Assembly (NCBI GenBank): GCA_021731405.1
Contig: JAKFXN010000003.1
Span: 108,676 to 172,675, forward strand
DNA from: Candidatus Parcubacteria bacterium
Lineage (GTDB): Bacteria > Patescibacteriota > Minisyncoccia > Phycocordibacterales > UBA918
Direction: 5' to 3'
Length of the DNA stretch: 64,000 nt
Both the position numbers and the translations under genes were made by a program. The notes under the pieces are model-generated. The model made no database searches. It saw nothing but the letters and a program-made list of their open reading frames with translations, and was not told the origin of the DNA. Shown piece after piece: positions 1,358 through 32,882 of the stretch. Each line of letters starts with the position of its first letter. The stretch's first letter is position 1.

Positions 1358-2665
1358 TTGTTATTTATGTCTTGGTTTGAAGAAAACAAACAAACACTTA
1401 TCGCTTTAGTAGAAGGGATTATTGTCTTCCTTATTCTTTTTGGGCTCATTGTCGCTGCAGCCACTTTTTATGACTTTTCTCAGACCAACATCCCCGTACT
1501 TACGTTTATCTTAGCGCTTGTCTGTGCCGTCTTTTTGGCCAAAAGTGTCTACGATATCGAAATTGATAAGGTGCGAATCAAAAAGAAGGGTGAACAGCTC
1601 GCCAACAAACTTGTCGCTTCTTCGCAGCAACTCTTTCTTGAGGTGTACAACAACAGCCCGGTCGCCTATTTGATTGTGGGGGAGTATGGAGACATTGTTT
1701 CAGCCAATACGGCCGCAGCTCGGTTGTTTGGGGTGTCTACTGAACATTTGGTAAAGCGAGACTTGTTTAGCTTTATGGAGACAGCCAACGAGGAACATCA
1801 ATCTATCCTCAAACACAAGTTCACTGAGGGAATCACTGTCTCTGATGAAGAGGTGAAGATATCGCGCGAACAAGATTTTTCATGGACCACCTTTTCAATT
1901 TTTCAGTTCTCGTCTACTGATGGAAAAAAACTCACACTGGTGACGTTTGTGGATATTACAAAACAAAAAGAGATTGATATCGCCAAGTCAGAATTCGTTT
2001 CGCTGGCTTCACACCAACTCCGTACCCCTATCTCAGGTATGCGGTGGAGCGCTGAGCTTCTTCTAATGGACGGGGTAGAGTCGCTCACCAAACAACAAAA
2101 ACGCTATATCGACAGACTACTTTCCAGTATTCAGCGTATGAGTGGTCTGGTGGACGATTTCTTGCAAGTATCACGCTTTGAGCTTGGTACGCGCGTGGTA
2201 AAAGAAGAATCGGTGGTACTTCGAGATTTGTTTGATGATGTGGTTGCAGAACAAGTAGAAAAAATATCAGTGAAACATCTGCATATCAATAAAGAATATG
2301 ACGATTCAATCACTCAAATTTCTACTGATCAAGCACTGTTACGAATGATTGTCACCAATTTGTATGTAAATGCCGTAAAGTACTCACGAGTCGGAGGAGA
2401 CGTTACGTTGGCATATCGCAAAAATGGAGAAGAGCTGATTATCGAAGTGCGCGATACGGGAATGGGTATTCCACTTGGTGAACAACCTCGGGTATTTTCA
2501 AAAATATTCCGCGCTTCAAATGCTGTGCGTGAAGTTCCGGATGGTACTGGGCTTGGTCTTTATATTGTTCAGAAAGCAGTCCAGACTCTGCAGGGAAGGG
2601 TAACGTTCTTGTCTGCTGAAAATATGGGCACTACTTTTACCGTAGTGATACCAACTTCGTTGTAG
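1358..2665 (+). CDS. sensor histidine kinase (two TM segments, PAS-like domain, HisKA + HATPase_c)
   Basis: H-box ASHQLRTPISGMRWSAELL. N-box NLYVNAVKYS. G1 VRDTGMGIP. G2 GTGLGLYIVQ. Confidence 0.85.
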   Translation: MLFMSWFEENKQTLIALVEGIIVFLILFGLIVAAATFYDFSQTNIPVLTFILALVCAVFLAKSVYDIEIDKVRIKKKGEQLANKLVASSQQLFLEVYNNSPVAYLIVGEYGDIVSANTAAARLFGVSTEHLVKRDLFSFMETANEEHQSILKHKFTEGITVSDEEVKISREQDFSWTTFSIFQFSSTDGKKLTLVTFVDITKQKEIDIAKSEFVSLASHQLRTPISGMRWSAELLLMDGVESLTKQQKRYIDRLLSSIQRMSGLVDDFLQVSRFELGTRVVKEESVVLRDLFDDVVAEQVEKISVKHLHINKEYDDSITQISTDQALLRMIVTNLYVNAVKYSRVGGDVTLAYRKNGEELIIEVRDTGMGIPLGEQPRVFSKIFRASNAVREVPDGTGLGLYIVQKAVQTLQGRVTFLSAENMGTTFTVVIPTSL

Positions 2666-2667
2666 GG

Positions 2668-3042
2668 TTAACTTGCAAACTCTTGTTCAATTCGAGTCGC
2701 AATGTTTTCGATACCCCAGTGTGATTTGTGGAGGATATCTTCTTCTGGAATATCAATATCAGCTGGTACTGCTTCTGAGGTATCTGACGCTGTGAGAATA
2801 AGTACTCGAGCCGTCTTGCCCCAGCTGTCTGCGCGTAGTTTTCGGTAGACATCGTAGCCTTCAATATCTGGAAGTTTAAGATCAAGGAGAATGAGGTCTG
2901 GCCTTTCAGACAGAGCAAGAGAAAGACCTTCTTCACCGTTGGCACATTTGAGAGCTTGGTAGCCTTTAAAAATAAGCATGTCTTCTAGTGAATCAGCCAG
3001 TTCGGTAGAATCTTCAATAACAAGAATCTTTTTTTGTGTCAT
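2668..3042 (-). CDS. single-domain response regulator (CheY-like receiver)
   Basis: KILVIEDS...LILLDLKLPDIEGYDV...LILTAS receiver motifs. Convergent with the HK gene. Confidence 0.8.
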   Translation of the reverse strand: MTQKKILVIEDSTELADSLEDMLIFKGYQALKCANGEEGLSLALSERPDLILLDLKLPDIEGYDVYRKLRADSWGKTARVLILTASDTSEAVPADIDIPEEDILHKSHWGIENIATRIEQEFAS

Positions 3043-3086
3043 AGGTATCTATTGTAGCGTATTTAAGTAAGGGAATGTAGAGGGCT

Positions 3087-3851
3087 TTAGTCACGAGCGT
3101 CAAGCAAGATACTCAAGTCAGCCGTGTTTACTTTTCCGTCACCATTAAAGTCACCTTTCGGATTATTGGTTGGGAGAAGCAGTAGGAAAATACTCAAGTC
3201 AGCCGTGTTTACTTTTCCGTCGTTTGTAAGGTCTGGGTTCGGGAGAGTGTTGAGGACAACAACTTCCGCGGCTGATTTGGCTTCATGAACAATAATCTTT
3301 TCTGGCTCATTTGCACTGACGGTAAAAAGAGTATCGATGTAGTTTGTTAACACCGCTTCTGTTCCTTTCCCGTCATGCATGAGGATGAGGGTGTCGTTGA
3401 GTACAAGATTTCCGTTTCCAGGGTTTAGCGCAGTGAAGGTGACCGTAAGGAGTGTATCAGTACCAGTAAAGCCGCCTGGTCTTGTGGTGCCGCCAGCAAA
3501 GCTAATAGTACCAGCACCATTTTCGTACCACGGCGCTTCGGCCCAGAGGTCGGCCAAGGAAATGTTGTAGTCGATACTTTCTACCGCCAGCGCCCCTTCA
3601 TTAAAAGTAATTGTTCCCTTAAATGCATTTACAGGAATATCTGATGTCGTCTCAATTTTTACGGTAAAAGTTTCACCTGGAGCACTTACGTATGTGCCAG
3701 ACGTGAGCAGGATAGCAGTCTCTTCAGTTTCGGTTGGAAGGAGGTACATACCCGTGATAGCGAGAATACTCAAAATCACACTTGCGGCAATAGTAGGGGG
3801 GATGATGGTACCAGCGCTTTGTTGGATATTCATACTATATAAGTATGACAT
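3087..3851 (-). CDS. secreted/membrane-anchored protein with two C-terminal dockerin-type Ca-binding repeats
   Basis: N-terminal TM/signal segment. C-terminal DLTNDGKVNTADLSIFL and DFNGDGKVNTADLSILL (dockerin type I repeat pattern D-x-N/D-x-D-G-x-V-N-x-x-D). Confidence 0.55.
   Translation of the reverse strand: MSYLYSMNIQQSAGTIIPPTIAASVILSILAITGMYLLPTETEETAILLTSGTYVSAPGETFTVKIETTSDIPVNAFKGTITFNEGALAVESIDYNISLADLWAEAPWYENGAGTISFAGGTTRPGGFTGTDTLLTVTFTALNPGNGNLVLNDTLILMHDGKGTEAVLTNYIDTLFTVSANEPEKIIVHEAKSAAEVVVLNTLPNPDLTNDGKVNTADLSIFLLLLPTNNPKGDFNGDGKVNTADLSILLDARD
3107..3221. repeat. 33-bp perfect direct repeat, two copies 80 bp apart (ATACTCAAGTCAGCCGTGTTTACTTTTCCGTC)
   Basis: Seen at 3107–3140 and 3187–3221. 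It encodes the two dockerin repeat modules of the gene above. Confidence 0.8.
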
Positions 3852-3899
3852 ATTTTATAAAAAACCACCCCCGTTTGAGGGTGGTGGAAGGGATTTGCC

Positions 3900-4427
3900 T
3901 TAGGCCAGCGACGCTACGCCAGGGAAGCTTTCAGGCACCTTGTTTGAAGCAGGCTTCACAAAGAAACCTTCTTTTTGCGAGTACTTCACGCCAGAGACCG
4001 CGGGTCGGTCGCGCAGCAGTGCTTCGCGATCGACTTCCGTGATATAGCGCAGATACTGCGTGAGCTTCATGGCTTCCAGGTTCTTGATGACCTGTTCTGC
4101 GCCACCTTTGGCAAAAGTCACTTTGGTGGGCGGCAGACGCCAGCCAAATTCGCCACCCGTCAGCACAAGACTTTTCTTGTCACCGACAAGCAAGGTTTTG
4201 CGGTTGGCAGTTGCGTAGGTCTGGAGTGCTTTCATGCACCGCTTGTACTCCTCCTCTAGAGGCGCAGCGGCCAACTCAGCAGCACTTTTGGCTTCTGCCA
4301 CTTCTGCTTCGAGCGTGGTCTTGATGTTTGCGAGCTCGCGCTCACATTCGCCAATCTTGAAGAGAAGGGTATTCACTTCAGCAAGAGAGGCAGGGACAGG
4401 GAAGAAGGGGTTTTTACGTGCAGCCAT
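3900..4427 (-). CDS. gam: phage Mu Gam-like host-nuclease inhibitor (Ku-like) protein
   Basis: Coiled-coil N-terminus, then ...TYATANRKTLLVGDKKSLVLTGGEFGWRLPPTKVTFAKG...KNLEAMKLTQYLRYITEVDREALLRDRPAVSGVKY. This is colinear with Mu Gam (...GWCEANRDELTNGGKVKTANLVTGDVSWRVRPPSVSIRG...ETLERLGLQRFIRTKQEINKEAILLEPKAVAGV). Confidence 0.7.
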   Translation of the reverse strand: MAARKNPFFPVPASLAEVNTLLFKIGECERELANIKTTLEAEVAEAKSAAELAAAPLEEEYKRCMKALQTYATANRKTLLVGDKKSLVLTGGEFGWRLPPTKVTFAKGGAEQVIKNLEAMKLTQYLRYITEVDREALLRDRPAVSGVKYSQKEGFFVKPASNKVPESFPGVASLA

Positions 4428-4538
4428 GATGGCCTCCTTTTGTGGTGGATGAAAAGAACAAAACTATCTACCAGAGAGTTTGTCATAGGTACGAATATTT
4501 GTTATAGTGTCGTCGAATACCGACAACTAATTAAAAGT

Positions 4539-5300
4539 ATGGACACTATTATACAAATGCTTACTGTGCTCGGCCTGCCTTCGCGTTCAAGTGCGGTCTA
4601 TGTTGATCTACTGGCGCACGGCCCCTCTGCTGCGCGTACGATTGCGCTGCGTCTCGGTATCCCACGTTCGTCACTCTACGACCACGTGAAGCCGCTCCTT
4701 GATCTCGCCCTTGTGTCTGAGCTCAAGACAGGTACCAAAGCAGTTTTTGTTGTGGAGGAAATTAGTAACCTCGATCGGTTAGTCGCTAAGCAAGAGCAGT
4801 CGCTCGCCCTGCTTCGCACCGAGTTCACTAAAGCCAAAGCTACTCTGGCTGAAGCGCAGACGTCTCATGCTGAGCCTCGGATAAAATTTGTCGAAGGCAA
4901 AGCGGGTATAGCCGCACTTCTCTTGGAGATGCTCTGGGATACCAAAAGTGAAATCAAAACGGTCTGGCCATACGAGGCGATGCTTAAAGTTTTGTCACCT
5001 GAAGATCTTGAACTTTTCAATCGTAAACGTATTCGCCAAAACATTGCACTCAAGACCATCTGGACTGGACCTCGGCCAGGAAAGCAGCATCTCTGGCGCG
5101 GCGGCGACTTTAAGGTAGAGCGCAAAAGTGCGCCAGCAAAATATCATGCTGATATGGCCTACAACATCTATGGAGACAGAGTGTCTTTCTTTAGTTCAGT
5201 TGGTGAACAGTATGGCTTTGTGGTCCATAGTCGAGACTTCGCAGCTCTCATGTCGGCACAGTTCGCGGCCTTGTGGGAAGTGTCTAAGGAGGGTAAGTAG
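4539..5300 (+). CDS. TrmB-family HTH transcriptional regulator (start chosen at MDTIIQML)
   Basis: N-terminal winged HTH: LTVLGLPSRSSAVYVDLLAHGPSAARTIALRLGIPRSSLYDHVKPLLDLALV. Confidence 0.5.
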   Translation: MDTIIQMLTVLGLPSRSSAVYVDLLAHGPSAARTIALRLGIPRSSLYDHVKPLLDLALVSELKTGTKAVFVVEEISNLDRLVAKQEQSLALLRTEFTKAKATLAEAQTSHAEPRIKFVEGKAGIAALLLEMLWDTKSEIKTVWPYEAMLKVLSPEDLELFNRKRIRQNIALKTIWTGPRPGKQHLWRGGDFKVERKSAPAKYHADMAYNIYGDRVSFFSSVGEQYGFVVHSRDFAALMSAQFAALWEVSKEGK

Positions 5301-5378
5301 AATCAAACATTCGCGCGAGTCTCGCCAAACTAAAAACTGTGTGGTAGATTCCAAGTAGATTTTTACAGGAGAAATCTC

Positions 5379-5741
5379 ATGTCAAACAGTGTTCTTGCTG
5401 ACTTGGTCCCCGCCACCAATCTTGATGTGTCACGCTTGCCGTGGCTACTTGAGTCGAGCCCTGAGAAAGTCATTGTCCGCAACTTGTGGTTCGTCACCGT
5501 ATCTTTGTTGTCTGACTTTGCCAAACCACCATTCGAGGTGGTTGAAGAAGAGGGCTACTTTGTGCTCCATGGTTTTGATGCCAAAAGCTCTTTGCCAGCC
5601 AGCCTGCGTGTTGTGGAGGACGATACGTTCCAGAACATCCTGCAGTATCGCAATGAGCGCTACCAAATGTGGGGCAGTAGCCCGCCCGGCAACATCCTCT
5701 TCTTGCCTGCCCTTCTTGGTCCAGATCTCAAGCTCATATAA
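5379..5741 (+). CDS. hypothetical protein, 120 aa
   Basis: AGGAG RBS 7 nt upstream. Hairpin terminator follows. No recognisable domain. Confidence 0.4.
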   Translation: MSNSVLADLVPATNLDVSRLPWLLESSPEKVIVRNLWFVTVSLLSDFAKPPFEVVEEEGYFVLHGFDAKSSLPASLRVVEDDTFQNILQYRNERYQMWGSSPPGNILFLPALLGPDLKLI

Positions 5742-5747
5742 GAGCAT

Positions 5748-5780
5748 CCTCAAAAGCAACCCTAACAAGGTTGCTTTTTT
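5748..5780 (+). terminator. rho-independent terminator
   Basis: AAAAGCAACCCTAACAAGGTTGCTTTTTTCAAT hairpin followed by a T-run. Confidence 0.6.
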
Positions 5781-5837
5781 CAATAAAAGTAGTCTAATAG
5801 GCAACAGTTCCGTTCCCTCATTTATAGGAGATATGCC

Positions 5838-6539
5838 ATGCGTACCTTTCTGTCTGTTCTTTTCATTTCACTGCTTCTGGGTTGCGCCAGCAAGCCTGCC
5901 AAGCCAAGTCTGGGAATCATCTTGTTTCCCAAAGAAGTCCTCGTGCCAGCGGTCGGTTCCACAACCGTGAAGCAGTTGACTCGTGACGGCAAAACCCGTC
6001 CACCAGAAGTCATGTTCGTCCGCGAGCATTTGGACGGACGTCCCATCTTTTCGGGTAAGGTCTGGAACCACGAAGGCTCCATGGCCGAGACCGCTTCTGG
6101 TGCTGTAGTTTGGACAAGCGATTGCCCAACTCCGCCTGAACTTTTGGAACCTCCGGTGGTTCCCAACAAGTGTGACTGGACGGTCTGCTATCCCCCGAAA
6201 GACGGAACGACCTATCTGCAGACGGTTCGTTTTTACGTTCCACTTCTGGCTTGTGGTGGGCGCGACGGCACACTCTCGGTTACCACAATCGGCACGGTCG
6301 AGATTCCGGTATATGGCAGGGTCGTACACACCGAAGCCAAGCTTTTGGTGCAAGGTTTGCCTGGGGTGACGTGGCAAAGCTACATCAAGCCCGGCTTTGG
6401 CGAGGTGCACGGTAAGTCAGTCAACTGGATGACGGTGTATGAAAATACCCCCAAGCGCCGCAGTGTGGTCTTCAAGAAAAAGCTAGGTGAAACCGGTGGC
6501 TTCGCCATCGCCAAGAGCGAAGAAGTCCCGCAGGATTAA
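5838..6539 (+). CDS. lipoprotein, 233 aa
   Basis: Signal peptide with lipobox LLLGC|AS. AGGAG RBS. Confidence 0.55.
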   Translation: MRTFLSVLFISLLLGCASKPAKPSLGIILFPKEVLVPAVGSTTVKQLTRDGKTRPPEVMFVREHLDGRPIFSGKVWNHEGSMAETASGAVVWTSDCPTPPELLEPPVVPNKCDWTVCYPPKDGTTYLQTVRFYVPLLACGGRDGTLSVTTIGTVEIPVYGRVVHTEAKLLVQGLPGVTWQSYIKPGFGEVHGKSVNWMTVYENTPKRRSVVFKKKLGETGGFAIAKSEEVPQD

Positions 6540-6552
6540 AATGCGGGAAACA

Positions 6553-6585
6553 AAAGAGCGACTCCAAGAGTCGCTCTTTTTCATA
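6553..6585. terminator. bidirectional hairpin terminator
   Basis: AAAAGAGCGACTCCAAGAGTCGCTCTTTTTCAT between convergent genes. Confidence 0.6.
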
Positions 6586-6589
6586 TTTA

Positions 6590-6901
6590 TTAATCAAAGC
6601 TGCGGTGGACGTCTTCAAAGTTCGTGATCCGTCCTTTTTCGTTTACAAGTATTCCTTCTTTTTTATACAGGGTTCGACGCTTCTTTTCGTGTTCATGCGC
6701 GAGCCATACGCGCCCACCAGCGTACACAATCCGGTGCCACGGTATTGCTCGCTGGTTAGGAGCTTTACTCAAGATACTCGAGATGCTCCGCGAAGCCATC
6801 GCTCCACCACCAGCTGCGCGAGCCAAGTCCCCGTAGGTGACTACGGTCCCTTCCGGGATAGACAGCGCGAGCTCGTACACGATTTGCGAGAAAGGGGACA
6901 T
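6590..6901 (-). CDS. alkyltransferase-like protein (ATL; MGMT DNA-binding domain without the active Cys)
   Basis: VTYGDLARAAGGGAMASRSISSILSKAPNQRAIPWHRIV. The canonical PCHRV is replaced by PWHRIV, as in ATL proteins. Start placed at MSPFSQ. Confidence 0.7.
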   Translation of the reverse strand: MSPFSQIVYELALSIPEGTVVTYGDLARAAGGGAMASRSISSILSKAPNQRAIPWHRIVYAGGRVWLAHEHEKKRRTLYKKEGILVNEKGRITNFEDVHRSFD

Positions 6902-6993
6902 AAGGGAAGTATAGCAAAACAAAAACTCTCGCGAGAGAGTTTTTGTAACGTGAAGCAAGTAGGTTGTATATAGAGTCTGTAAACTCTTGCAAA

Positions 6994-7269
6994 TTACTGC
7001 ATCGACACCTTGAGTGACAAATCAAGAGCTTTGGCAATGCGGCTAAGTGTTTGCAGTGAAGGGTTGCTGTCACCTTGTTCAAGGCGAGAAATAACGGGCT
7101 GACGACTACCAATTGCTTCAGCTAGTTCAGTTTGTGACCAGCCACGCTTAATACGCTCTCTTATAATAGTTTTTACTACCTCATATTCTGCTCCAAGTGC
7201 TTCATACTCAGTTTTTACAACTGGGTGCTTGAGGGCCTTGGTTTTAAATTGTTTAAATGCAGTACTCAT
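6994..7269 (-). CDS. higA: XRE-family HTH antitoxin (HigA-like)
   Basis: GWSQTELAEAIGSRQPVISRLEQGDSNPSLQTLSRIAKALDLSLKV, a Cro/C1-type HTH. Directly downstream of the Gp49-like toxin. Confidence 0.7.
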   Translation of the reverse strand: MSTAFKQFKTKALKHPVVKTEYEALGAEYEVVKTIIRERIKRGWSQTELAEAIGSRQPVISRLEQGDSNPSLQTLSRIAKALDLSLKVSMQ

Positions 7270-7295
7270 AAAACAAATATAACTTATAAGTTATA

Positions 7296-7601
7296 TTACC
7301 GCAAGTCTTCTTTTGCAGTACGTGCTCTTGTTAATTCCTTTTCGAGCGTTTTTTGAGTTTTCTTAATACAAACGTGCAACAAAACGGCCTGTTTCTTATG
7401 GAAGCAGTAAAATATTCTAATCTCTCTAGTTCCATGGATGCGTAGTTCAATTAGCCCATCAGACAGGTGTTTACTGTGCGGCATCCCTAATTCGTTACCA
7501 AATTCTTCAAGTAATTCAATAGTACGAATTGCCTTAGCAATTTCTTTTTCATTGAGCGATTCAAGAAATGTTTCAACTGAATCAAGGAGAATAATTTGCA
7601 T
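7296..7601 (-). CDS. higB: HigB/Gp49-like (RelE/ParE superfamily) toxin
   Basis: ELRIHGTREIRIFYCFHKKQAVLLHVCIKKTQKT fits the phage Gp49-like/HigB pattern. Toxin-first order with the XRE partner. Confidence 0.65.
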   Translation of the reverse strand: MQIILLDSVETFLESLNEKEIAKAIRTIELLEEFGNELGMPHSKHLSDGLIELRIHGTREIRIFYCFHKKQAVLLHVCIKKTQKTLEKELTRARTAKEDLR

Positions 7602-7640
7602 GTAATAAGTATAGCAAACAGGGTAACAAACCTATTCGAG

Positions 7641-8153
7641 CTATAATTTCAGAAATTCTTCTATGAATGCTTTTTCGCGCTCGAGTATAAAGTGACCTTC
7701 AAATTTACCCGGAGTATCGTTCTTCATTTTTTCAAGAACTTCTATTGGTTGCATCCATAAAGTCTCGTGACCCTCTTCGATTTCTCCAGCTTCTAGTTGT
7801 CGTTTTCCAATATCACCTATTGCTTTTGCTACAAAACCATAAGAAATCTGAATCAGCTTGTACTTGTTTCGGTATTCGATGGTAACTCCAAGGGGTCTTA
7901 CAATCTCACATTTACAACCGACCTCTTCAAGGACTTCTCGTTTTAGAGCATCTTCTATATTTTCTCCTTGATTAACACCTCCGCCAGGTAGTTTGTGATA
8001 ACTATAGGTTTTGAGATATTGGGTGGACATTTCGCCCTTCTCATTTAGAAGTATTGCGCGGGCAGATTTTCTTAGTTCATATGATTCGCCAAGTTGTTCG
8101 CCCTCATCAGTCAGCCCCATGCTCTTTTCGCTGATTTCTTTGAGTATTTTCAT
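7641..8153 (-). CDS. NUDIX hydrolase
   Basis: Nudix box GGGVNQGENIEDALKREVLEEVG. Confidence 0.75.
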   Translation of the reverse strand: MKILKEISEKSMGLTDEGEQLGESYELRKSARAILLNEKGEMSTQYLKTYSYHKLPGGGVNQGENIEDALKREVLEEVGCKCEIVRPLGVTIEYRNKYKLIQISYGFVAKAIGDIGKRQLEAGEIEEGHETLWMQPIEVLEKMKNDTPGKFEGHFILEREKAFIEEFLKL

Positions 8154-8218
8154 ATGTGGAATTATATCAAAACATGCCTCAATTGAGTGAGGAAGGGTAA
8201 GGTGATACTCTTAAAGAT

Positions 8219-8560
8219 ATGAATCAAGACCTGCAAACACTCCAGGAGCGAATAAAGCAATTTTGTGCAGATCGAGACTGGTCGCAATTTCATGACCCTA
8301 AAAATCTAGCCATTTCGCTGCAACTCGAAGCTTCGGAGGTATTGGAGTTATTTCAGTGGACTAAAGATAACCAGGTCGTCAAAGGTAAAGAAGGGGAGGT
8401 GGCAGATGAACTCGCGGATGTGATGTACTGGCTACTTATGCTCGCAAATCACTACGATATAGATTTGGTTGAGGCGCTTAGTCAGAAGATGGATAAAAAC
8501 GAACAAAAGTATCCTGTTGAAAAGGCTAAGGGCACATCAGCGAAATATACAGATCTATAG
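8219..8560 (+). CDS. MazG-like nucleoside-triphosphate pyrophosphohydrolase (small, all-alpha)
   Basis: EASEVLELFQW...EVADELADVMYWLLMLANHYDIDL is the MazG/YpjD-type EExxE...DxxDV motif pattern. 2-bp gap to the next gene. Confidence 0.7.
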   Translation: MNQDLQTLQERIKQFCADRDWSQFHDPKNLAISLQLEASEVLELFQWTKDNQVVKGKEGEVADELADVMYWLLMLANHYDIDLVEALSQKMDKNEQKYPVEKAKGTSAKYTDL

Positions 8561-8562
8561 AT

Positions 8563-10572
8563 ATGTCAGAGATTAAAACCTTCCCATTTAGTCAACCAGG
8601 AGTTGAACAAATAAGAAACTACAAGTACGGCACTGATTGGCCAGTCGTCTATTTGATTGAAAATGGGAAGGAGCTTTACGTAGGTGAAACAATTAGAGCT
8701 TACGGTCGTACAAGACAGCATTTAGATAATGAAAAGCGAAGACAGCTTAATACGATTCATGTAATTTCTGACGATGAATTTAATAAGTCTGCCACTCTCG
8801 ATACCGAGTCTTCATTGATTGAGTATTTGGTAGCTGATGGGGTATATACTCTTCAAAATGGAAATGGAGGTTTACAAAACCATGATTATTTTGATCGCGA
8901 GCGTTATCAAGGAAAATTTGAATTATTGTGGAAGAAGCTGCAGGACTTAAAGATTGCAAAGAATGATTTGTTACAAATCCGTAACAGTGATCTTTTTAAA
9001 TATTCACCTTATAAAACTCTCACAGACGATCAGTATTTAATTGCTACCCAACTCGTAGAGCATTTTAAAGAGAATAAAAAACAAACATACGTTATTCATG
9101 GAGGTCCTGGAACCGGAAAGACAATACTTGCTACTTTCCTTATTAAAAAGCTAGTTGATGAAGGTAAAAAAGACATTGCCCTAGTCATTGCAATGGTTTC
9201 TCTACGAAAGACACTAAAGAAAGTCTTTCGAGGTATTCCTGGACTCAGTCCAAATATGGTTATTGGACCTAATGAAGCGGTTGATCAAAAATATGACATT
9301 TTAATAGTGGATGAAACTCACCGACTGCACCAAAGAAGAAATATTCCTAATTACGGAACCTTTGATGTTACTAATAAAAAATTAGGTTTAGGAAACGAGG
9401 GAACAGAGCTGGACTGGATTCTCTCCTCAGCAAATCAGGTAGTACTTTTTTATGATCAGCGCCAATCGGTCCGACCTTCTGATATTTCCGCTAAAAAGGT
9501 TTTGGAAACAAACCCGATTAGTTTTGAATTAAAAACACAAATGCGTGTTAAAGGGGGAGAAAATTATCTTCATTTTATAGATAACCTCTTAGAAAATAGC
9601 GCCGACACGAAAGCAAATTTTACTGACTACGAATTTAAGGTCTATGATGATTTGGGGCAAATGGTAAGTGCTATCAAAGAGCAGGAGAAAGCCCATACAC
9701 TCTCACGTATGGTAGCTGGCTATGCTTGGAAGTGGCTATCAAAAAAGAATCCTACCGTACCAGATATTGTTATTGGGGATACAAAGTTGTTTTGGAATAG
9801 TAGAATTCATGACTGGGTGAATTCACCAAATGCCATTAACGAAGTTGGTTGTATACATACTATTCAAGGGTACGATCTAAATTACACTGGTGTAATTATC
9901 GGTCCGGAAATGTCCTACGATCCAATCAAAAAAGTGATTGTGGTTGATAAATCAAAGTACCTTGATTCAAATGGACATAAAGGGGTCACAGATCCAGAAG
10001 AACTCAGGCGTTATGTTATTAATATTTATAAAACATTACTGACTCGCGGCATTCTTGGAACGTACGTTTACATAGTGGACGAAAACTTAAGAAAATATTT
10101 TAAGGAGGTGTTATCTGGAGAAAGTTTAGTAACTCAAGAAGAGGTGTCAGAAGAAGAGGTTACGCCGTCTCCTTATCAGGGAGAAGTGGTAAAGGTTCCA
10201 CTGTATGACTCAATAGGTTGTGGGGAGCTGATGCTCGCTGATTCAGTTAGTGATGAAACTGTCGATGTGCCAGCTTGGCTTATAAAACCCGGTGCAAAGT
10301 ATTTTGCGCTTCACACTCGAGGGGACTCAATGAATCAACTCGCTATTAATGATGGGGACATTATCTTGTGTCAGAAGAACCTGAATGCAACTAGTGGTAA
10401 TGCGGTCGTGCTAATAGGGGACGACGCAACCCTTAAACAGATTAAGGTAGAAAAAGATGGTTTGGTACTTATACCAAAGTCGACCAATCCGGAGCATAAG
10501 ATAAGAAAAGTGACTATTGACGACGACTTCAAGATTCTAGGAGTGTTTGTCTGTAAGATTGATAGAAACTAG
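8563..10572 (+). CDS. GIY-YIG-like + DUF2075 P-loop ATPase fused to a C-terminal LexA-like S24 autopeptidase domain
   Basis: N-terminal WPVVYLIENGKELYVGETIRAYGRTRQHL (GIY-YIG-like). Walker A GGPGTGKT, Walker B ILIVDETH. C-terminal PLYDSIGCGELMLA (cf. LexA PLVGRVAAGEPLLA cleavage region). GDSMN is the catalytic Ser. DATLKQIK is the catalytic Lys. Confidence 0.7.
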   Translation: MSEIKTFPFSQPGVEQIRNYKYGTDWPVVYLIENGKELYVGETIRAYGRTRQHLDNEKRRQLNTIHVISDDEFNKSATLDTESSLIEYLVADGVYTLQNGNGGLQNHDYFDRERYQGKFELLWKKLQDLKIAKNDLLQIRNSDLFKYSPYKTLTDDQYLIATQLVEHFKENKKQTYVIHGGPGTGKTILATFLIKKLVDEGKKDIALVIAMVSLRKTLKKVFRGIPGLSPNMVIGPNEAVDQKYDILIVDETHRLHQRRNIPNYGTFDVTNKKLGLGNEGTELDWILSSANQVVLFYDQRQSVRPSDISAKKVLETNPISFELKTQMRVKGGENYLHFIDNLLENSADTKANFTDYEFKVYDDLGQMVSAIKEQEKAHTLSRMVAGYAWKWLSKKNPTVPDIVIGDTKLFWNSRIHDWVNSPNAINEVGCIHTIQGYDLNYTGVIIGPEMSYDPIKKVIVVDKSKYLDSNGHKGVTDPEELRRYVINIYKTLLTRGILGTYVYIVDENLRKYFKEVLSGESLVTQEEVSEEEVTPSPYQGEVVKVPLYDSIGCGELMLADSVSDETVDVPAWLIKPGAKYFALHTRGDSMNQLAINDGDIILCQKNLNATSGNAVVLIGDDATLKQIKVEKDGLVLIPKSTNPEHKIRKVTIDDDFKILGVFVCKIDRN

Positions 10573-10679
10573 ATGTACGTGGAGTATTAAAATGAGTTAC
10601 GGTTGTCTATATCCCATGCAGGCCTATTTTTGTAGGTCAGCTATTGATCTATTCTGTCTGATCTGGTTAAGTTGTTTGA

Positions 10680-11144
10680 ATGGCATCGGCTCACTCTTAT
10701 AAAATAACCCTTTCCAACAACAAGACTGAAAAGCAAGCGATTGACTACTTATTGTCAATCGATAAACGGTTTTTGCTTCCAACAAAAGAGGGTAGGAAGC
10801 AACTTCTAAACGTTCTCGGTTTAGATAAGAAATACGCGCGCACCTTTGATTTATTTGTTTTGTCCGGTCACACCAGTGATGAGCAAGAAATTACATTCAA
10901 AGATGTTAAAAAAGTTATTTTGATTGAGCTTAAGACAACTCAAAAGTACCTACCAAATAATCCAAAAGGATTTTTCTTCGGAGCGACGCAAAATGAATTT
11001 GATCTAGCAGAGCAACTTGGAGAGCAGTATAAATTTTGTTTCGTCAGTCTTCATCCAGAATCGCTAGGCTATTCCCTTGTGTCGGCAATTGAATTGGAAG
11101 ACAAAGTTATAAATAAGCGAGTACAGTATCAAATAAATCTATAA
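10680..11144 (+). CDS. hypothetical 154-aa protein, possible PD-(D/E)xK nuclease-fold
   Basis: FDLFVLSG...VKKVILIELKTT resembles a D...ExK motif. It lies immediately upstream of the C5-MTase. Confidence 0.3.
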   Translation: MASAHSYKITLSNNKTEKQAIDYLLSIDKRFLLPTKEGRKQLLNVLGLDKKYARTFDLFVLSGHTSDEQEITFKDVKKVILIELKTTQKYLPNNPKGFFFGATQNEFDLAEQLGEQYKFCFVSLHPESLGYSLVSAIELEDKVINKRVQYQINL

Positions 11145-11231
11145 AGTATTTTGGTGCAATTATAGTAGTAAAACTTAAATATCCCAGGAGTGACTATATC
11201 GTGAATTGATAAACCCTGGCATAATAAGAAG

Positions 11232-12482
11232 ATGTTAAAGTCAACAAATAAAAAACCTAGGGTTTTAGATTTATTTGCTGGAGCAGGAGGTCTCTCTGAG
11301 GGCTTTGTCAGAGCTGGCTGTAATATTGTAGGTCATATCGAAATGGATAAAAATGCTTGTGAGACTCTTATCACAAGAATGGTTTACCACGCACTCCTCA
11401 AAAAGGGAAAAATTGATGAATATAAAAAATATGTGCTAGGAGAAGTTACCAGAGAGGAGTTGATTGAAAAATATAAACTACAAAAAGAGCGGGACTCAGT
11501 AATATGTGCATCTATAGGAGTAGATAACTACAGAAATTTAATAGCTACAATCAAAGAGAAACTGGGGGGTAAAAAACTGGACTTAATCATCGGAGGTCCA
11601 CCTTGTCAGGCTTATTCACATATTGGTCGAGCACGTGATAAAAATAAAATGGCTTCTGACGAGCGTAATTTTTTGTATAAATTTTATGTTGAGTTTTTAA
11701 AAGAATTACTGCCAAAAATCTTTGTTTTTGAAAATGTCCCAGGGTTAAAAACTGCTGCAGGCGGCAAGCATCTTGCGGATATGAGGGCGCTAATGTTGGA
11801 GGCTGGATACGAGACGGAATTGAGCGTCCTTAATACTGTAGATTTTGGTGTCCCGCAAAATAGAAAGAGAGTCATCTTGATTGGTTGGAGCAAAGAATCA
11901 AAAATGAAGGAGTACCCAGATTTTGATAAACTTAAGCTGGTTCGTTCGTATGTTGTCTCGGATGTTTTTTCTAACTTACCTAAATTGAAGGCAGATGATG
12001 GATCTTTGCATGTAAGAGATTTTCAGCAAGGTAGTAGTGTCCCAAGCCAGTTGATGATTAGTGACTTTGATATTTTGATGTCGCACATGACTCGGCCGAA
12101 CAACGATCAAGATTTAGAGATATACAGACATGTGGCTCTGGCTAAAAGGAAAGGTGTTGAGCTTAAGTATAATGAGCTACCCAAGGAGCTTAAAACTCAT
12201 AAAAATGAGCACGGTTTTCTAGATAGGTTTAAAGTTGTCGATCCAGCTGCAAAAGGGTCACATACAATAGTCGCTCATATTGGAAAAGACGGTCACCATT
12301 ACATTCATCCTGATGTTAAGCAAAATAGGTCTATTTCAGTGAGAGAGGCTGCCCGCTTGCAAACATTCCCGGATAGTTATAAGTTTGAGGGAGCTCGAAC
12401 TGCTCAGTTTAAACAAATTGGGAACGCTGTTCCGCCTTTATTTTCAACAATGATTGCAAAAGAGCTAATCAAACATCTTTAA
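11232..12482 (+). CDS. dcm: DNA (cytosine-5)-methyltransferase
   Basis: Motif I DLFAGAGGLSEGF. Motif IV GGPPCQAYS. Motif VI ENVPGL. Motif X QIGNAVPP. Confidence 0.9.
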   Translation: MLKSTNKKPRVLDLFAGAGGLSEGFVRAGCNIVGHIEMDKNACETLITRMVYHALLKKGKIDEYKKYVLGEVTREELIEKYKLQKERDSVICASIGVDNYRNLIATIKEKLGGKKLDLIIGGPPCQAYSHIGRARDKNKMASDERNFLYKFYVEFLKELLPKIFVFENVPGLKTAAGGKHLADMRALMLEAGYETELSVLNTVDFGVPQNRKRVILIGWSKESKMKEYPDFDKLKLVRSYVVSDVFSNLPKLKADDGSLHVRDFQQGSSVPSQLMISDFDILMSHMTRPNNDQDLEIYRHVALAKRKGVELKYNELPKELKTHKNEHGFLDRFKVVDPAAKGSHTIVAHIGKDGHHYIHPDVKQNRSISVREAARLQTFPDSYKFEGARTAQFKQIGNAVPPLFSTMIAKELIKHL

Positions 12483-12487
12483 AATAT

Positions 12488-14662
12488 ATGAAGAAAGTAT
12501 TTAAGCCACGAGCCAGACTACTATTACAGTTAGGAAATCAGCTTATAAAAAATGAAAATATAGCTCTAGTTGAATTAATTAAAAACTCTCATGATGCGGA
12601 TGCAAAAGAGTGCAAAATTGAGTTAATCAACATTGATTCTAAAGAGAATGGAGAAATCATCATTAAAGATGACGGCGTTGGTATGTCTCTACAGGTGATT
12701 GAACAGATATGGTTAGAGCCAGGAGCGGACTTTAAAGACCTTGTACTCAAAGGCAAACAATTGCCACTGAACTTGATTTATGCAGCTAAGCGTACTCCAA
12801 TTGGCGAGAAAGGGATTGGTAGGTTTGGTGTACATAAATTAGGTGATGAAGTGGAGCTGGTTACTAAAGACGCAGATTCTGAGAAGGAAATAGTAGTAAA
12901 AATTAACTGGCTGGATTTTCATGATGTCATCTATTTAGAGGATGCAACTTTTGATGTCGCAGAGAGGAAGCCTGTGATTTTTACAGGCAAGCAGACTGGT
13001 ACTGTAATGACTATACGAAAACTACGTACCTCATGGGATAAAACTATGTTTAAGGAACTGATCAGAACTGTTCTGTCGCTCAATACACCTTTTGCAGAAA
13101 AGACTAAAGATAGTTTTTCAGCTACTCTGAATCTTAGTTTAAAGAATAAAGATCAACAGTTAGAGTGGCAAGAAACAATGCTGACAGTCGAACAGGTAAA
13201 AAATTTATCTTTATGGAAAGTAAGATGCACTATCGAAGGTAATAAAATAAAGAAATTTCACTATGAATTTTTACCATATGCTGGAATGGACAAGCTTTCT
13301 AAGAAAGTGGTTACTGAGAAAAATGCTATTTTCACCAAGTATTATAATCAACTAAGAGACAGCAATAATTTACCATTTGATTTGTCATCACATGAGATTG
13401 GTCCGATTGAAGTTGAGCTTTTTCTCTTTTATCTTGGCTCGAAGGTTCTAAAACTAAGCACATCAGATCCTAGGTTGCTTAATGATTTTATGAAAGAGAA
13501 CGGTGGGGTTAGGGTTTATAGGGGAGGAATGCGCGTTTATGACTACGGGGAACCAGAAGATGACTGGCTAAACTTAGATCAGAAGAGAATAAGTAATGTG
13601 GGAGGGAGCATAGGAAATAAGCTTATTCTAGGTTCCATTTCACTAGAAAGACGCAAAAGTCTTGGGCTAATTGAAAAAACAAACAGAGAGGGTTTTGTGG
13701 AGAACGATTCATATAAAGCATTCAAGCAGTCGCTTTTGCAAGTCATTGCCATTGTCAATCATTTGAGAAATATAGATAAGTTACAAATTAAAGAAATATA
13801 TGAAGGATCAGCACAGACTGAGCCAGTTTTGCATGATGTAGATTTATTGAAGGACATAACAACTGAGAAGATCGCAGATTTTTCTGAAGGATTAACTGAA
13901 GAAAAGAAAAATGAGGTCAATAAATTTAGAGATGAAATTATTGAAGGCTTAGAAGTCATCAAAGAACAATATATTAAAAGCCACGATATTCTTATTAAAA
14001 GTGCTGGTGCTGGTTTAAGTCTTGGGGTGGTAATTCATGAAATTGAAAAAAGAATTAAAGAACTCAGAAGAGTGATAGATGTTGTTGATTTTAATGTAAA
14101 GAAGGTAAAAGAAATAGTTTTATCAATTTCTAAATTAGTTGGTAATTATTCTGTGTTACTAAGTAATACCACTAAAGAAAAAGTACAACTTTCTAAAGTG
14201 GTTGAAGATTCAATATATAACTGCTCATTTAGGTTTGAGGCTCATAAAGTTTCTGTATCCCAGCTATATAAAAAGCATAAGTTAGTCAAAATAAATTGTG
14301 CCACAAATATTATTGTTGGAGCTCTTCTCAATATTTTTGATAACTCGCTCTATTGGTTAAATGCTTATGATATTAAAGATAAAAAAATATTGATTGACTT
14401 TAATGACTACAAAGATGAGATTGGAGTCTTGGTGGCAGATAACGGTAAGGGGTTTTTATTATCGGCAGAGGATGCAATTAAACCCTTTATTTCAATGAAA
14501 AATGGAGGTACAGGCTTAGGGTTACACATTGCCGATGAAATGATGAAGATCCATAAAGGGCGCCTTGTAATAAGGAATTTTAAAGAATTTAAATCTTTAC
14601 CTAAGGAGTTTGAGCAAGGTGCCATCGTAGAGTTAATCTTTAAGAAGAATGAAACTAAATGA
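12488..14662 (+). CDS. hybrid GHKL ATPase: N-terminal MORC/HATPase_c_3-like module plus C-terminal histidine-kinase-like core (H-box + HATPase_c)
   Basis: N-terminal: ELIKNSHDADA, DDGVGMS, GEKGIGRFG. C-terminal: GVVIHEIEKRIKEL (H-box-like), LLNIFDNSLYW (N-box), VADNGKGF (G1), GGTGLGLHIADEMM (G2). Confidence 0.6.
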   Translation: MKKVFKPRARLLLQLGNQLIKNENIALVELIKNSHDADAKECKIELINIDSKENGEIIIKDDGVGMSLQVIEQIWLEPGADFKDLVLKGKQLPLNLIYAAKRTPIGEKGIGRFGVHKLGDEVELVTKDADSEKEIVVKINWLDFHDVIYLEDATFDVAERKPVIFTGKQTGTVMTIRKLRTSWDKTMFKELIRTVLSLNTPFAEKTKDSFSATLNLSLKNKDQQLEWQETMLTVEQVKNLSLWKVRCTIEGNKIKKFHYEFLPYAGMDKLSKKVVTEKNAIFTKYYNQLRDSNNLPFDLSSHEIGPIEVELFLFYLGSKVLKLSTSDPRLLNDFMKENGGVRVYRGGMRVYDYGEPEDDWLNLDQKRISNVGGSIGNKLILGSISLERRKSLGLIEKTNREGFVENDSYKAFKQSLLQVIAIVNHLRNIDKLQIKEIYEGSAQTEPVLHDVDLLKDITTEKIADFSEGLTEEKKNEVNKFRDEIIEGLEVIKEQYIKSHDILIKSAGAGLSLGVVIHEIEKRIKELRRVIDVVDFNVKKVKEIVLSISKLVGNYSVLLSNTTKEKVQLSKVVEDSIYNCSFRFEAHKVSVSQLYKKHKLVKINCATNIIVGALLNIFDNSLYWLNAYDIKDKKILIDFNDYKDEIGVLVADNGKGFLLSAEDAIKPFISMKNGGTGLGLHIADEMMKIHKGRLVIRNFKEFKSLPKEFEQGAIVELIFKKNETK

Positions 14663-15881
14663 TTATAGCGATTTTACTAAAGTTGTAATCATTGATGATG
14701 ACTACAATGAAGGTAATGAAGTTCGGAAAGCACTACTCGGTGCGGGTATTTCATCGGCTTTTTTTCATATATCGTCTAGTCAACCTGAACCTAAAGGTCC
14801 TTATAAAAATGTACGCTTAGTATTCTTAGATTTAGACCTAGACCACCTAGGCGTGCAAGAGAACCCAACTCAAGGTGCCTCAATAACATTGGCTACCCTT
14901 TCGAGGGTCGTAGATAAGAGTAGTCATTATGTTTTAGTATTATGGTCTGCAAAAACCACGAGGCCAATAGCTCGTGAGTTTAAGCGTCAACTGAAGAGAA
15001 CAAAAACAGTGGCAAATCCTATAAAAATTATAAGTTTAGGAAAAAATACTTGTAAAAATACCTCAGGAAGTTATAACTTATCAAAAATTAAGAAAGGAAT
15101 TAATTCTGGTTTAGAAAGCCTTCCCGCCTTCTCAGTCTTTTCAGAAGGAGAGAGGATTTTCGGCAATGCAATCGCTAAAACAATGGTCTCAATTTCGAAG
15201 CGACGTAGTGATCAAACTTTGTCAAAAGTTATTAATTCTTTAGCTAAAGCCAGTGCGCCACGTCCACGTGAACTAGTTGCAAATAGTGCTCTACTCAATT
15301 TCAATGGACTCATTGAAGACTCTATAGCTAGAGAAGTCTTAGCTCATGATTTTGGAGATTTACATTCTAAATTAAATGAGGAAGAGCTAAATCCCCGTCA
15401 GTGTGCAGAATTAAATTATCATTTAATTTTTTCGCCCGATAAGGTTTCTGATAGTGGTCAAATTATTTTTTTAAGAAAAAACAAAAAATTTATTAAAGAC
15501 GTTTTTGGTGACGAAATGAATTGTGAAGCATATAAATCAATGAGATGTTTTGTGGTAGAAGTAACACCGATTTGTGGAAGCGCTCAATCTAACGGTCTTC
15601 GCTATGTCATTCAAGGGGTGATTCATCCTCAGTTCAGAAAAGTAAGAACTAGTAAGGATGAAATTCGTGCAACAAATGTGTCAGGCTATACGTTTAAAGA
15701 CAGCTTTATATATAGCGGAAAAATTTGTCGAATGTCTTTTAATTTAAGATCTTATAGTACTGACATAAAGGATGTGGATTCTGGCGTAGTTAGTGAAAAA
15801 CTTCGAGCACATATTGTGATGGACATTCAACATAAAATCGCCTCTTATATTTCTCGTCCTGGACACTCATTGCTTTACTAG
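14649..15881 (+). CDS. receiver (REC)-like domain protein with unknown 280-aa C-terminal domain
   Basis: KVVIIDDDYNEGNE...VRLVFLDLDLD...VLVLWSAKT resembles a CheY-like fold. The start overlaps the previous gene by 14 nt. Confidence 0.4.
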   Translation: MKLNDYSDFTKVVIIDDDYNEGNEVRKALLGAGISSAFFHISSSQPEPKGPYKNVRLVFLDLDLDHLGVQENPTQGASITLATLSRVVDKSSHYVLVLWSAKTTRPIAREFKRQLKRTKTVANPIKIISLGKNTCKNTSGSYNLSKIKKGINSGLESLPAFSVFSEGERIFGNAIAKTMVSISKRRSDQTLSKVINSLAKASAPRPRELVANSALLNFNGLIEDSIAREVLAHDFGDLHSKLNEEELNPRQCAELNYHLIFSPDKVSDSGQIIFLRKNKKFIKDVFGDEMNCEAYKSMRCFVVEVTPICGSAQSNGLRYVIQGVIHPQFRKVRTSKDEIRATNVSGYTFKDSFIYSGKICRMSFNLRSYSTDIKDVDSGVVSEKLRAHIVMDIQHKIASYISRPGHSLLY

Positions 15882-16006
15882 CCATACACCACCTAGCAAT
15901 ATAGACGACATAGAGTGTTTGCTAAAGTCTTTAGAATTAGTCGCGCTGAATTGAAATACGTTAACTAAGGTTAAGTATCACTTATAAGACAGTTTTGTTT
16001 GGAAGT

Positions 16007-16190
16007 GGCGGAATTGGTCACGAATCACTAAGTATATTTATTCACTTCGTTCCAAATCTACTAAGTGTTCTCGACCCCAGCTCGCTCGCCTCCGGCATCG
16101 CTGCGCTCCTCAATTCCCGACGAAAGCAAAGCAGTTTGCTTTCTCCGCTCCACCATATTAAAAAAATCCCCATGAGGGGAATTTTTAATA
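16007..16190 (-). repeat. tRNA/tmRNA-3'-flank element copy (d), core-less, downstream of ssrA
   Basis: Shares left/right arms with copies at 52331, 53937 and 61925. Proximal CGGGAATTGAG is the reverse complement of the tmRNA T-arm. Distal CAATTCCGCC is a direct copy of the tmRNA 3' segment. Confidence 0.6.
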
Positions 16191-16588
16191 TGGTGGAGAT
16201 GGCGGGAATTGAGCCCGCGTCCGAATCAGGTACCACATGGTGCTTCTACAGTGTGTAGTTACTCCTTTGATTTAAAGCTTATGTCTTAAGAAGAAACAAA
16301 ACAACATAAACTCGAGTTGTTACAAGCTTAAACATATGCGACAACGGCGCTTATGCCCAGAGCCTCGTGGCTATTCTACAACCGTGCCGTATGAGGCGTT
16401 TAACACGATCGCATCGATCCGGGTCTAGGCGAATGGTTACGCTAGAGCGGGAGCGAATCCAAACGCGTTAGCGTATGGACTTGGTATTGCTTTGTTTGCA
16501 AATACAGATGGAACCTCTTTACGAATTGATTTCCAGTTTTCGACACTGCACACAATGGGTAGGCTAACCGTCGATGCCTAGCATCCCC
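16191..16588 (-). ncRNA. ssrA: tmRNA (SsrA)
   Basis: 5' GGGGAUGCUAGGCAUCGACGG... and 3' ...GCGGGCUCAAUUCCCGCCAUCUCCACCA form a tRNA-like domain. Tag ORF GCA-AAC-AAA... encodes ANKAIPSPYANAFGFAPALA*. SmpB is adjacent. Confidence 0.85.
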
Positions 16589-23136: not shown

Positions 23137-23138
23137 AG

Positions 23139-32865: not shown

Positions 32866-32882
32866 ATTGTTTTTTAACTTAG

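Follow-up and report, generated by a model that had tools for sequence, protein, structure and literature searches.

A LexA-type S24 domain as an optional, exchangeable tail of DUF2075 nuclease-helicases paired with a DCTPP1-like pyrophosphatase: a candidate conflict cassette of Patescibacteria

Two bacterial proteins that place an N-terminal nuclease and a DUF2075 helicase in one polypeptide are validated anti-phage defences: Nhi of S. epidermidis (SERP2475; Bari et al., bioRxiv 10.1101/776245) and the Nhi-like system of B. cereus (SG141; Millman et al. 2022, 10.1101/2022.05.11.491447). In both, the nuclease is of the PD-(D/E)xK type, and neither description includes a pyrophosphatase partner, each system consisting of a single gene. 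The supplementary table of tested systems in the second study (10.1101/2022.05.11.491447) also lists two ‘Pyrophosphatase’ candidates: SG192 of Bacillus firmus LK28, a 98-aa pyrophosphatase with a 643-aa DUF2075 protein that is marked not verified, and SG193 of B. thuringiensis Lr3/2, marked cloning failed; the entry for SG142, an Nhi-like system that also contains DUF2075, reads ‘Cloning failed’. The pyrophosphatase-DUF2075 gene pair has therefore already been noticed as a candidate, and it is still unvalidated. Here we describe a cassette of this kind in a 64,000-nt window of a Candidatus Parcubacteria genome (assembly GCA_021731405.1, contig JAKFXN010000003.1), in which the DUF2075 protein, 669 aa long, ends in a LexA-type S24 autopeptidase domain. 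We conclude that this S24 tail is an optional module, that it occurs in three classes on two lineages of nuclease-helicase, and that it has repeatedly been gained, lost and exchanged.

Thousands of DUF2075 relatives emerged from a search of 5.8 billion proteins, and we analysed the best 120. Among these 120, 97 are full-length fusions containing both PF09848 and PF00717 (about 630-700 aa, 51-84% identical). Most come from metagenome-assembled genomes (MAGs) of Patescibacteria, Parcubacteria, Nomurabacteria and Saccharibacteria, and we conclude that the fusion is widespread in the bacteria of the candidate phyla radiation (CPR; Patescibacteria). It is mirrored only in automatic JGI annotations, which read ‘DUF2075 family protein/SOS-response transcriptional repressor LexA’. 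The 669-aa protein consists of three parts: a GIY-YIG-type nuclease domain, a superfamily 1B (SF1B) helicase and the S24 domain. An AlphaFold2 model, built on the alignment of the 97 sequences, has a mean predicted local distance difference test (pLDDT) score of 85.2, with low confidence confined to the linker at residues 521-538 and the cleavage-site loop at residues 552-558. The cassette and its parts are arranged as follows, with counts of invariant residues referring to the 97 full-length homologues.

8219..8560, + strand: DCTPP1/RS21-C6-like all-alpha dNTP pyrophosphatase (MazG-like, 113 aa), first gene of the cassette; its stop lies 2 nt before the next start
8563..10572, + strand: 669-aa GIY-YIG / DUF2075 SF1B helicase / S24 fusion open reading frame (ORF), without interruption; coordinates include the stop codon
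8563..8967, + strand: GIY-YIG-type nuclease domain, aa 1-135, with conserved Y30, Y39, G41, R49, H53, E82 and N99
8980..10113, + strand: DUF2075 / Schlafen group-3 SF1B helicase core, aa 140-517, with Walker A and Walker B motifs
9100-9123, + strand: Walker A motif, GGPGTGKT
9307-9327, + strand: Walker B motif, VDETHRL
10114..10182, + strand: linker, aa 518-540, acidic and little conserved, pLDDT <50 at 521-538; tail-less homologues stop here
10183..10569, + strand: LexA-type S24 autopeptidase domain, aa 541-669
10219..10224, + strand: predicted scissile bond Cys553-Gly554, aligned to LexA Ala84-Gly85, invariant in 97/97
10327..10329, + strand: Ser589, predicted nucleophile (GDSM), aligned to the LexA Ser, invariant in 97/97
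10435..10437, + strand: Lys625, predicted general base, aligned to the LexA Lys, invariant in 97/97

The central part of the protein belongs to the DUF2075/Schlafen group-3 helicases (PF09848): the SLFN-g3_helicase/DUF2075 profile matches over its full length at residues 173-506 (E 8e-66, 223 bits), the fold is SF1B, and the Walker A and Walker B motifs are both invariant across the 97 homologues. For the N-terminal part the profile scores are lower. Pfam GIY-YIG (PF01541), run against the whole protein, covers residues 29-66 with 19.0 bits, under its cutoff of 22.6; run against the isolated domain it scores 22.6 bits, exactly the cutoff, and 16 of 19 family N-terminal domains scanned singly match it, with a best E-value of 8e-6. 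A sequence profile search of the PDB with the N-terminus reached the UvrC GIY-YIG domain (1ycz) only at E 0.28. Y39, G41, R49, H53, E82 and N99 are invariant in the 97 homologues and Y30 is conserved in at least 90%; in a set of 121 sequences, the GIY-YIG catalytic residues (Tyr, Tyr, Arg, His, Glu and Asn) are all at least 97% conserved. The canonical GIY-YIG layout is beta-beta-alpha-beta-alpha, and the modelled topology of the N-terminus, at pLDDT >90, is beta(28-33)-beta(37-43)-alpha(46-54)-beta(64-69)-alpha(75-92), with the conserved Tyr, Tyr, Arg and Glu within it.

The C-terminal domain matches Pfam Peptidase_S24 at residues 546-663 (E 1e-19, 70.8 bits, cutoff 23.3), and in a sequence search of the PDB residues 541-646 align to residues 72-175 of E. 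coli LexA (E 1e-7), with LexA PLVGRVAAGE under PLYDSIGCGE of the query. Profile and fold both place it among S24 catalytic domains. Assignment to LexA or UmuD themselves is a different matter: the NCBIfam LexA equivalog model (TIGR00498) scores 51.3 bits against a cutoff of 110.95 and aligns through its C-terminal domain alone (model positions 78-197), the UmuD model (NF007621) scores 51.2 bits against a cutoff of 110 in the C-terminal region, a profile search of the 669-aa protein found no LexA_DNA_bind domain, and no umuC-like gene was seen near the ORF in the ORF list or by profile search. Because the S24 profile passes its cutoff and the LexA and UmuD scores fall below theirs, we conclude that the S24 tail is genuine, yet that the protein is neither LexA nor UmuD. 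A first-pass annotation of the window, made by a model from the sequence letters, had proposed a GIY-YIG-like motif, a DUF2075 P-loop and an S24 module in this ORF, and Pfam matches and motif positions agree with it, including the positions of the motifs that it quoted. It had also singled out the Cys-Gly, Ser and Lys elements shared with LexA and UmuD, each of which proves invariant, and had named a missing S24 fold or a lost Ser/Lys dyad as grounds for abandoning the fusion; the profile search found the fold, and all 97 homologues keep the dyad.

Cleavage occurs at Cys-Gly in UmuD and at Ala-Gly in LexA and CI. A cut at Cys553-Gly554 is predicted to yield a 553-aa nuclease-helicase and a 116-aa S24 core. 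In the model, a strand at residues 542-551 leads into a flexible loop at residues 552-558 with pLDDT <50; this low score agrees with mobility of the cleavage loop. Lower rmsd to some ‘cleavable-form’ LexA structures was discarded as uninterpretable, given the pLDDT of the loop. C553, G554, S589 and K625 are kept even though overall tail identity drops to 33-40%, and Ser589 and Lys625 are at least 98% conserved among 125 tails from the two core lineages.

Among 1.84 billion representative proteins, the nearest relatives of the tail outside the fusion are proteins of ~200-215 aa with the S24 domain at about residues 75-205, 35-41% identical to it. Their length and layout are those of LexA repressors, and the tail therefore fits a RecA*-responsive ancestry. 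One such free-standing match (P0130) contains a LexA DNA-binding domain, and a LexA-like ORF adjoins the cassette in one related locus (L050); LexA itself thus occurs in related organisms. Separately, the representative library holds a giant 5690-aa protein (P0264) in which 38 separate stretches match the S24 tail query, the best over query positions 54-96; it seems to be a repeat protein made of an S24-fold fragment.

The first-pass annotation overlooked that the tail is optional, that it falls into three classes and that it shuffles between cores. We classified the C-terminus of the DUF2075 protein in 84 non-duplicate loci, as follows.

Tail class xGCG[ED]...GDSM, the type found in the window: 17 loci
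Tail class APCGx...GDSM: 29 loci
Divergent tail class AAG...GESM...K, which passes the Pfam S24 cutoff: 7 loci
No tail: 31 loci

Each of the three classes scores above the Pfam S24 cutoff. Most tail-less forms stop at positions equivalent to query 517-525, exactly at the helicase boundary, with cores up to 87% identical to that of the query. The possibility that tail-less forms are followed by a split-off S24 gene was considered and rejected: neither tblastn nor a hidden Markov model (HMM) search matched a separate S24 gene after them. Identity to the query is uncorrelated between core and tail (r = -0.05); one homologue (P0009) combines an 85% identical core with a 33% identical tail, and another (P0043) a 56% identical core with an 81% identical tail. 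On the core tree we count ~16 changes, gains or losses, of tail presence.

The tail also occurs on a second core lineage, in which tailed forms measure 765-815 aa and tail-less forms 615-625 aa. In a joint tree of 125 tails the two core lineages interleave, with 16 switches of core lineage; 25 of the 125 tails have their closest relative on the other core lineage, at up to 92% identity, so that tails up to 92% identical are found on cores that are ~31% identical. The exchange can be read most directly in a Saccharibacteria MAG (locus L001), where positions 7323-9626 correspond to 8563-10572 of the window. There, the MazG-like gene is 75% identical, the S24 tail 87% and the downstream NOV_C-like gene 93%, whereas the enzyme between these shared flanks has a different N-terminal domain of ~240 aa without a Pfam match and a helicase that is only 31% identical. 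Homology at the DNA level is restricted to blocks at 7030-7325, 9225-9620 and 9629-10140, breaking off and resuming at the module borders. We conclude that the core was swapped between conserved MazG and S24 flanks. Such modularity is typical of conflict systems.

These data bear on whether an assembly error or frameshift joined two separate genes, for which no evidence was found and which we regard as having a negligible chance of being right. The fusion is not an artefact of this kind, because the same unbroken architecture recurs, at 51-84% identity, in 97 independent full-length homologues from many samples and because the second core lineage has the same S24 tail; the lack of a separate S24 gene downstream of the tail-less forms argues against it too.

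The gene immediately upstream encodes the second component. We gathered neighbourhoods for 105 related loci and counted gene pairing over the 77 non-duplicate loci with enough upstream sequence. A MazG-like gene lies directly upstream in 73 of these 77, usually separated by -4 to +5 nt: in 38 of 39 loci with the main tail classes, in 7 of 7 with the divergent class and in 28 of 31 without a tail. The same pairing is found on the B. thuringiensis megaplasmid pBMB431, and in both tailed and tail-less forms of the second core lineage. We conclude that the MazG-like gene belongs to the system, as the first-pass annotation had implied from the 2-nt gap, and that the two genes are probably translationally coupled. 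Across 48 complete loci, MazG pairwise identity follows that of the S24 tail (Spearman 0.62) more closely than that of the N-terminal domain (0.36) or the helicase (0.39), population structure being uncontrolled. Either an interaction between MazG and the tail or simply the swapping of the core as a unit could account for this.

The description ‘MazG-like’ holds at the level of the family (Pfam MazG-like PF12643, E 1.6e-19, 70.3 bits, cutoff 27) and can be refined: the protein is a homologue of DCTPP1/RS21-C6. In the PDB it matches an archaeal pyrophosphatase (4qgp, E 4e-24) and, over its full length, DCTPP1 (6sqw/2a3q, E 2e-23), with which it has in common the RDWxQFH, ELFQW and KYP motifs and the acidic metal ligands; it differs in being a minimal, 113-aa bacterial version encoded in an operon with a nuclease-helicase. 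Its acidic residues E37, E40, E43, E63 and D66 are at least 95% conserved among 81 orthologues. From these conserved ligands and the resemblance to DCTPP1, the enzyme looks active. Because it shares the nucleotide-pocket motifs RDWxQFH and ELFQW with DCTPP1, it may remove dCTP or 5-modified dCTP, a substrate that we assume by extension from DCTPP1’s known preference.

How close, then, is the cassette to described systems? In outline the 669-aa protein is Nhi-like, one polypeptide with an N-terminal nuclease and a DUF2075 SF1B helicase, and the PADLOC Nhi model aligns solely to residues 142-376 (E 5.6e-16). It lies outside the Nhi family, whose nuclease is of the PD-(D/E)xK type: its own nuclease is of the GIY-YIG type, and Nhi and Nhi-like proteins lack an S24 tail. 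SG192 and SG193 are closer in gene order, since they share the two-gene operon of a small MazG/DCTPP1-like pyrophosphatase followed by a DUF2075 protein, and the MazG-like protein of the window is 44% identical to the SG192 pyrophosphatase. Over the first ~400 residues of the SG192 DUF2075 protein, the enzyme of the L001 type is 56% identical to it. SG192 belongs to the core lineage that lacks GIY-YIG; at 643 aa, near the 615-625 aa of tail-less L001-type proteins, it is probably tail-less. Set against LexA, UmuD and lambda CI (MEROPS S24), the 669-aa protein has no winged-helix or helix-turn-helix DNA-binding domain, and cleavage would release a 553-aa enzyme, where theirs gives a DNA-binding domain or a 24-residue peptide. 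The eukaryotic group-3 Schlafens (SLFN11, SLFN14, SLFN5) have another N-terminal nuclease fold and no S24 domain, and a parallel with them in damage sensing would be one of analogy. In open-access papers and bioRxiv, we found nothing relevant on DUF2075/Schlafen proteins with S24, LexA or MazG, and a description elsewhere is possible. The first-pass annotation had taken the whole to be an undescribed system. This stands for the S24 tail, which is absent from the searchable literature, and not for the pyrophosphatase-DUF2075 pair, already listed as SG192 and SG193; the S24 tail on DUF2075 proteins is the new part.

We propose that the two genes form a conflict or defence cassette in which RecA*-stimulated self-cleavage releases the nuclease-helicase, a chain of steps that, resting as it does on sequence comparison, we hold tentatively and with slightly more doubt than belief. 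The cassette would most likely act against phages or other mobile elements. At rest, the S24 tail would be a detachable latch restraining the enzyme, and would probably dimerise too, by analogy with LexA and UmuD. Filaments of RecA on single-stranded DNA (ssDNA), as might build up on phage replication intermediates or at DNA breaks, would switch the tail to a cleavable conformation, whereupon the Ser589/Lys625 dyad would cut Cys553-Gly554. This would set free a 553-aa nuclease-helicase, equivalent to the natural tail-less forms, to unwind and cut DNA, while the pyrophosphatase hydrolysed dCTP or 5-modified dCTP. Self-cleavage, the RecA* trigger, activation on cleavage, the defence role and the pyrophosphatase substrate are all steps that we infer. 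The first-pass annotation had likewise suggested self-cleavage, stimulated by RecA* or triggered otherwise, and a defence or abortive-infection effector, both of which are plausible. A role in conflict is favoured by the validated status of Nhi and Nhi-like, by the choice of the pyrophosphatase-DUF2075 pair as a defence-island candidate in 10.1101/2022.05.11.491447, and by the low-GC island around the cassette, with its tmRNA gene, HigB/HigA-like pair and Dcm-GHKL module. RecA-ssDNA is the candidate trigger because the tail appears derived from LexA-type proteins, and the cleavage product may be active because tail-less forms of the same length, near-identical in sequence, are maintained with the same MazG partner. 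A fuller version, which we consider doubtful as it stands, would make the cassette an SOS-gated immune effector: RecA-ssDNA from phage replication or DNA breaks would trigger self-cleavage and free the nuclease-helicase, the DCTPP1-like partner would strip dCTP or modified dCTP of the phage, the whole would be a bacterial counterpart of ssDNA and replication-stress sensing by SLFN11, and the three tail classes would record an arms race over the trigger.

Several observations weigh against release by self-cleavage as the function of the tail, or against a role in defence. SG192, the sole relative of the gene pair to have been tested, did not protect against the phages used, and SG193 could not be cloned. 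The GIY-YIG assignment combines a borderline profile score, at the cutoff, with residue conservation and predicted topology. The cleavage-site loop has a pLDDT <50, and the model fails to show the site docked in the active site. Neither RecA nor LexA is encoded in the 64-kb window, and RecA dependence is not readable from sequence. Several genomic contexts, L009 and L010 among them, have no recognisable defence neighbours. Cleavage inactivates LexA and lambda CI, and the results would fit a switch in either direction. It is conceivable, if unlikely, that the tail is a safety valve: it would dimerise and thereby activate the nuclease-helicase, and RecA*-stimulated cleavage would turn the enzyme off and limit self-damage to the chromosome. 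LexA, CI and UmuD dimerise through their S24 domains, a double-strand break requires two active sites in many GIY-YIG enzymes, LexA and CI are inactivated by cleavage, and the conservation of the catalytic residues fits this scheme too. The failed cloning of SG193 and SG142, which may hint at toxicity of the enzymes in E. coli or B. subtilis, points the same way. Tail-less forms with cores up to 87% identical nevertheless persist with the same partner gene; the core is therefore maintained, and presumably functional, without a tail. A tail that served purely for dimerisation or for targeting to RecA filaments, with no regulated proteolysis, would fit the known ability of S24 domains to bind RecA filaments and to dimerise, and the low model confidence of the cleavage loop. 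We think this very improbable: tails diverge to ~33% identity with no change in the scissile Cys/Ala-Gly, the Ser or the Lys, which argues for selection on catalysis rather than on binding alone.

Release by self-cleavage might also answer to something other than host RecA*, such as a phage protein (anti-repressor-like, a recombinase or an SSB filament) or another stress, with the tail classes again arising from an arms race. The tail diverges faster than the core (85% core against 33% tail identity in the example given above), has three distinct classes and is repeatedly exchanged between cores. That diversity could equally follow host RecA or the avoidance of cross-dimerisation; moreover, the closest free-standing relatives are LexA-like, and every characterised damage-responsive S24 autoprotease of the repressor type that we know of acts through RecA*. 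We therefore give a different trigger little credence. A role in host DNA repair, as an SOS housekeeping module of small-genome bacteria in which a UvrC-like GIY-YIG nuclease-helicase is activated post-translationally by damage and a dCTP pyrophosphatase cleans house, strikes us as distinctly unlikely. DNA damage is a theme common to a GIY-YIG nuclease with a helicase, a LexA-type domain and a DCTPP1-like sanitising enzyme, some cassettes sit amid housekeeping genes (after rpsL-rpsG in L007, after lysS/greA in L014), and the lack of phage protection by SG192 would be accounted for. The distribution is patchy, however, and the cassette of the window lies in a low-GC island. Flanks vary: in a qualitative survey of other loci they include RhuM, cytosine methylases, SocA/Panacea, Fic, AIPR, PIN and small nuclease-like genes, and toxin-antitoxin, restriction-modification or abortive-infection (Abi) genes often neighbour the cassette. 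Modules are frequently exchanged and the tail repeatedly gained and lost, the protein is homologous to validated defence proteins, and the cassette also travels on Bacillus megaplasmids and on an integrase-bearing element. The latter (L099; IMG/VR UViG_3300029360_000449, positions 1536-11184) is one of only five matches in viral collections; it carries the cassette, with a divergent AAG/GNSM tail and the MazG-like gene present, between an integrase and a primase-helicase, and looks like an integrative element or satellite, not a lytic phage.

To our knowledge, LexA-type self-cleavage has so far been shown for repressors (LexA, CI, SetR) and one polymerase subunit (UmuD). If release by self-cleavage is true, this would be the first LexA-type autoproteolysis to control an enzyme effector directly, and, if the tail works as proposed, an immune or DNA-processing effector would be coupled to RecA-ssDNA irreversibly and independently of transcription. 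Here LexA chemistry is joined to a nuclease-helicase whose family includes validated antiviral proteins of bacteria (Nhi) and has human homologues (Schlafens). A candidate system whose tail-less Bacillus form did not pass validation gains a concrete lead, the strict pairing with a DCTPP1-like enzyme, and nature itself provides controls in the presence, absence and swapping of the tail. The distribution of the system centres on Patescibacteria (CPR bacteria), a group in which defence biology has received little study.

In the window, the cassette is housed in a low-GC stretch at 7600-16190 (0.34-0.38 versus ~0.45), which ends at the 3′ end of the tmRNA gene. Its neighbours are the following.

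6994-7601, - strand: pair of a Gp49/HigB-like toxin (101 aa) and an HTH_3 antitoxin (91 aa; HigA-like), adjoining the NUDIX gene
7641..8153, - strand: divergent NUDIX hydrolase, 170 aa (Pfam NUDIX, E 3e-14), an incidental neighbour
10680..11144, + strand: NOV_C-like (restriction-endonuclease-fold) gene, 154 aa (Pfam NOV_C, E 5e-4, below cutoff)
11232-15881, + strand: Dcm-type cytosine methylase, then a 724-aa protein with two GHKL ATPase domains, then an overlapping 410-aa ORF
16191-16588, - strand: tmRNA gene
16727-17173, - strand: SmpB

The first-pass annotation had read the NUDIX gene as a nucleotide-related component of the system. We rejected this reading, because a NUDIX homologue occurs in 1 of 103 related loci. 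The NOV_C-like gene is found elsewhere in only 3 of the 103, namely L001, where it is 93% identical and syntenic, L019 and L048; it is possibly an accessory gene, a lineage-specific neighbour outside the core of the cassette. A conserved third cassette gene was likewise rejected, since flanks vary among the surveyed loci. The Dcm methylase matches the PADLOC DrmMII model (E 5e-160), the 724-aa GHKL protein gives a weak match to BbrUII/HgiDII-like restriction enzymes, and the 410-aa ORF overlapping the end of its gene has no Pfam match; the Dcm and GHKL genes probably form a restriction-modification-like module, and a similar pair of Dcm and HATPase_c_3 genes comes after the cassette in L002. 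PADLOC matches in the context include Nhi, AbiO, PDC-S41 and PDC-S14. The 3′ end of tmRNA is a classic site of island insertion. Searches for an integrase and for an att-like direct repeat of the tmRNA 3′ end found none.

Sigma-70-like sites were fewer in a promoter scan than in shuffled controls, and neither a promoter nor a LexA box could be made out convincingly upstream of the MazG-like gene. The 65-nt intergenic region between the NUDIX and MazG-like genes contains an inverted repeat, CCTCA-ATTGAG-TGAGG, at 8177-8192, ~27 nt before the MazG start, which may serve as an operator or have arisen by chance. A few kb upstream of the island, at 3900-4427 on the - strand, lies a gene for a phage Mu Gam-like protein (E 3e-26), adjoining cohesin/dockerin-like and TrmB-like genes. 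Elsewhere in the window, ARAGORN calls two tRNAs whose anticodons are both unusual: a tRNA-Ser(ACT) at 32882-32969 (- strand), which falls within overlapping ORFs at 32849-33916 (+) and 32326-33057 (-) and may be a false positive, and a tRNA-Ile(TAT) at 23138-23212 (- strand).

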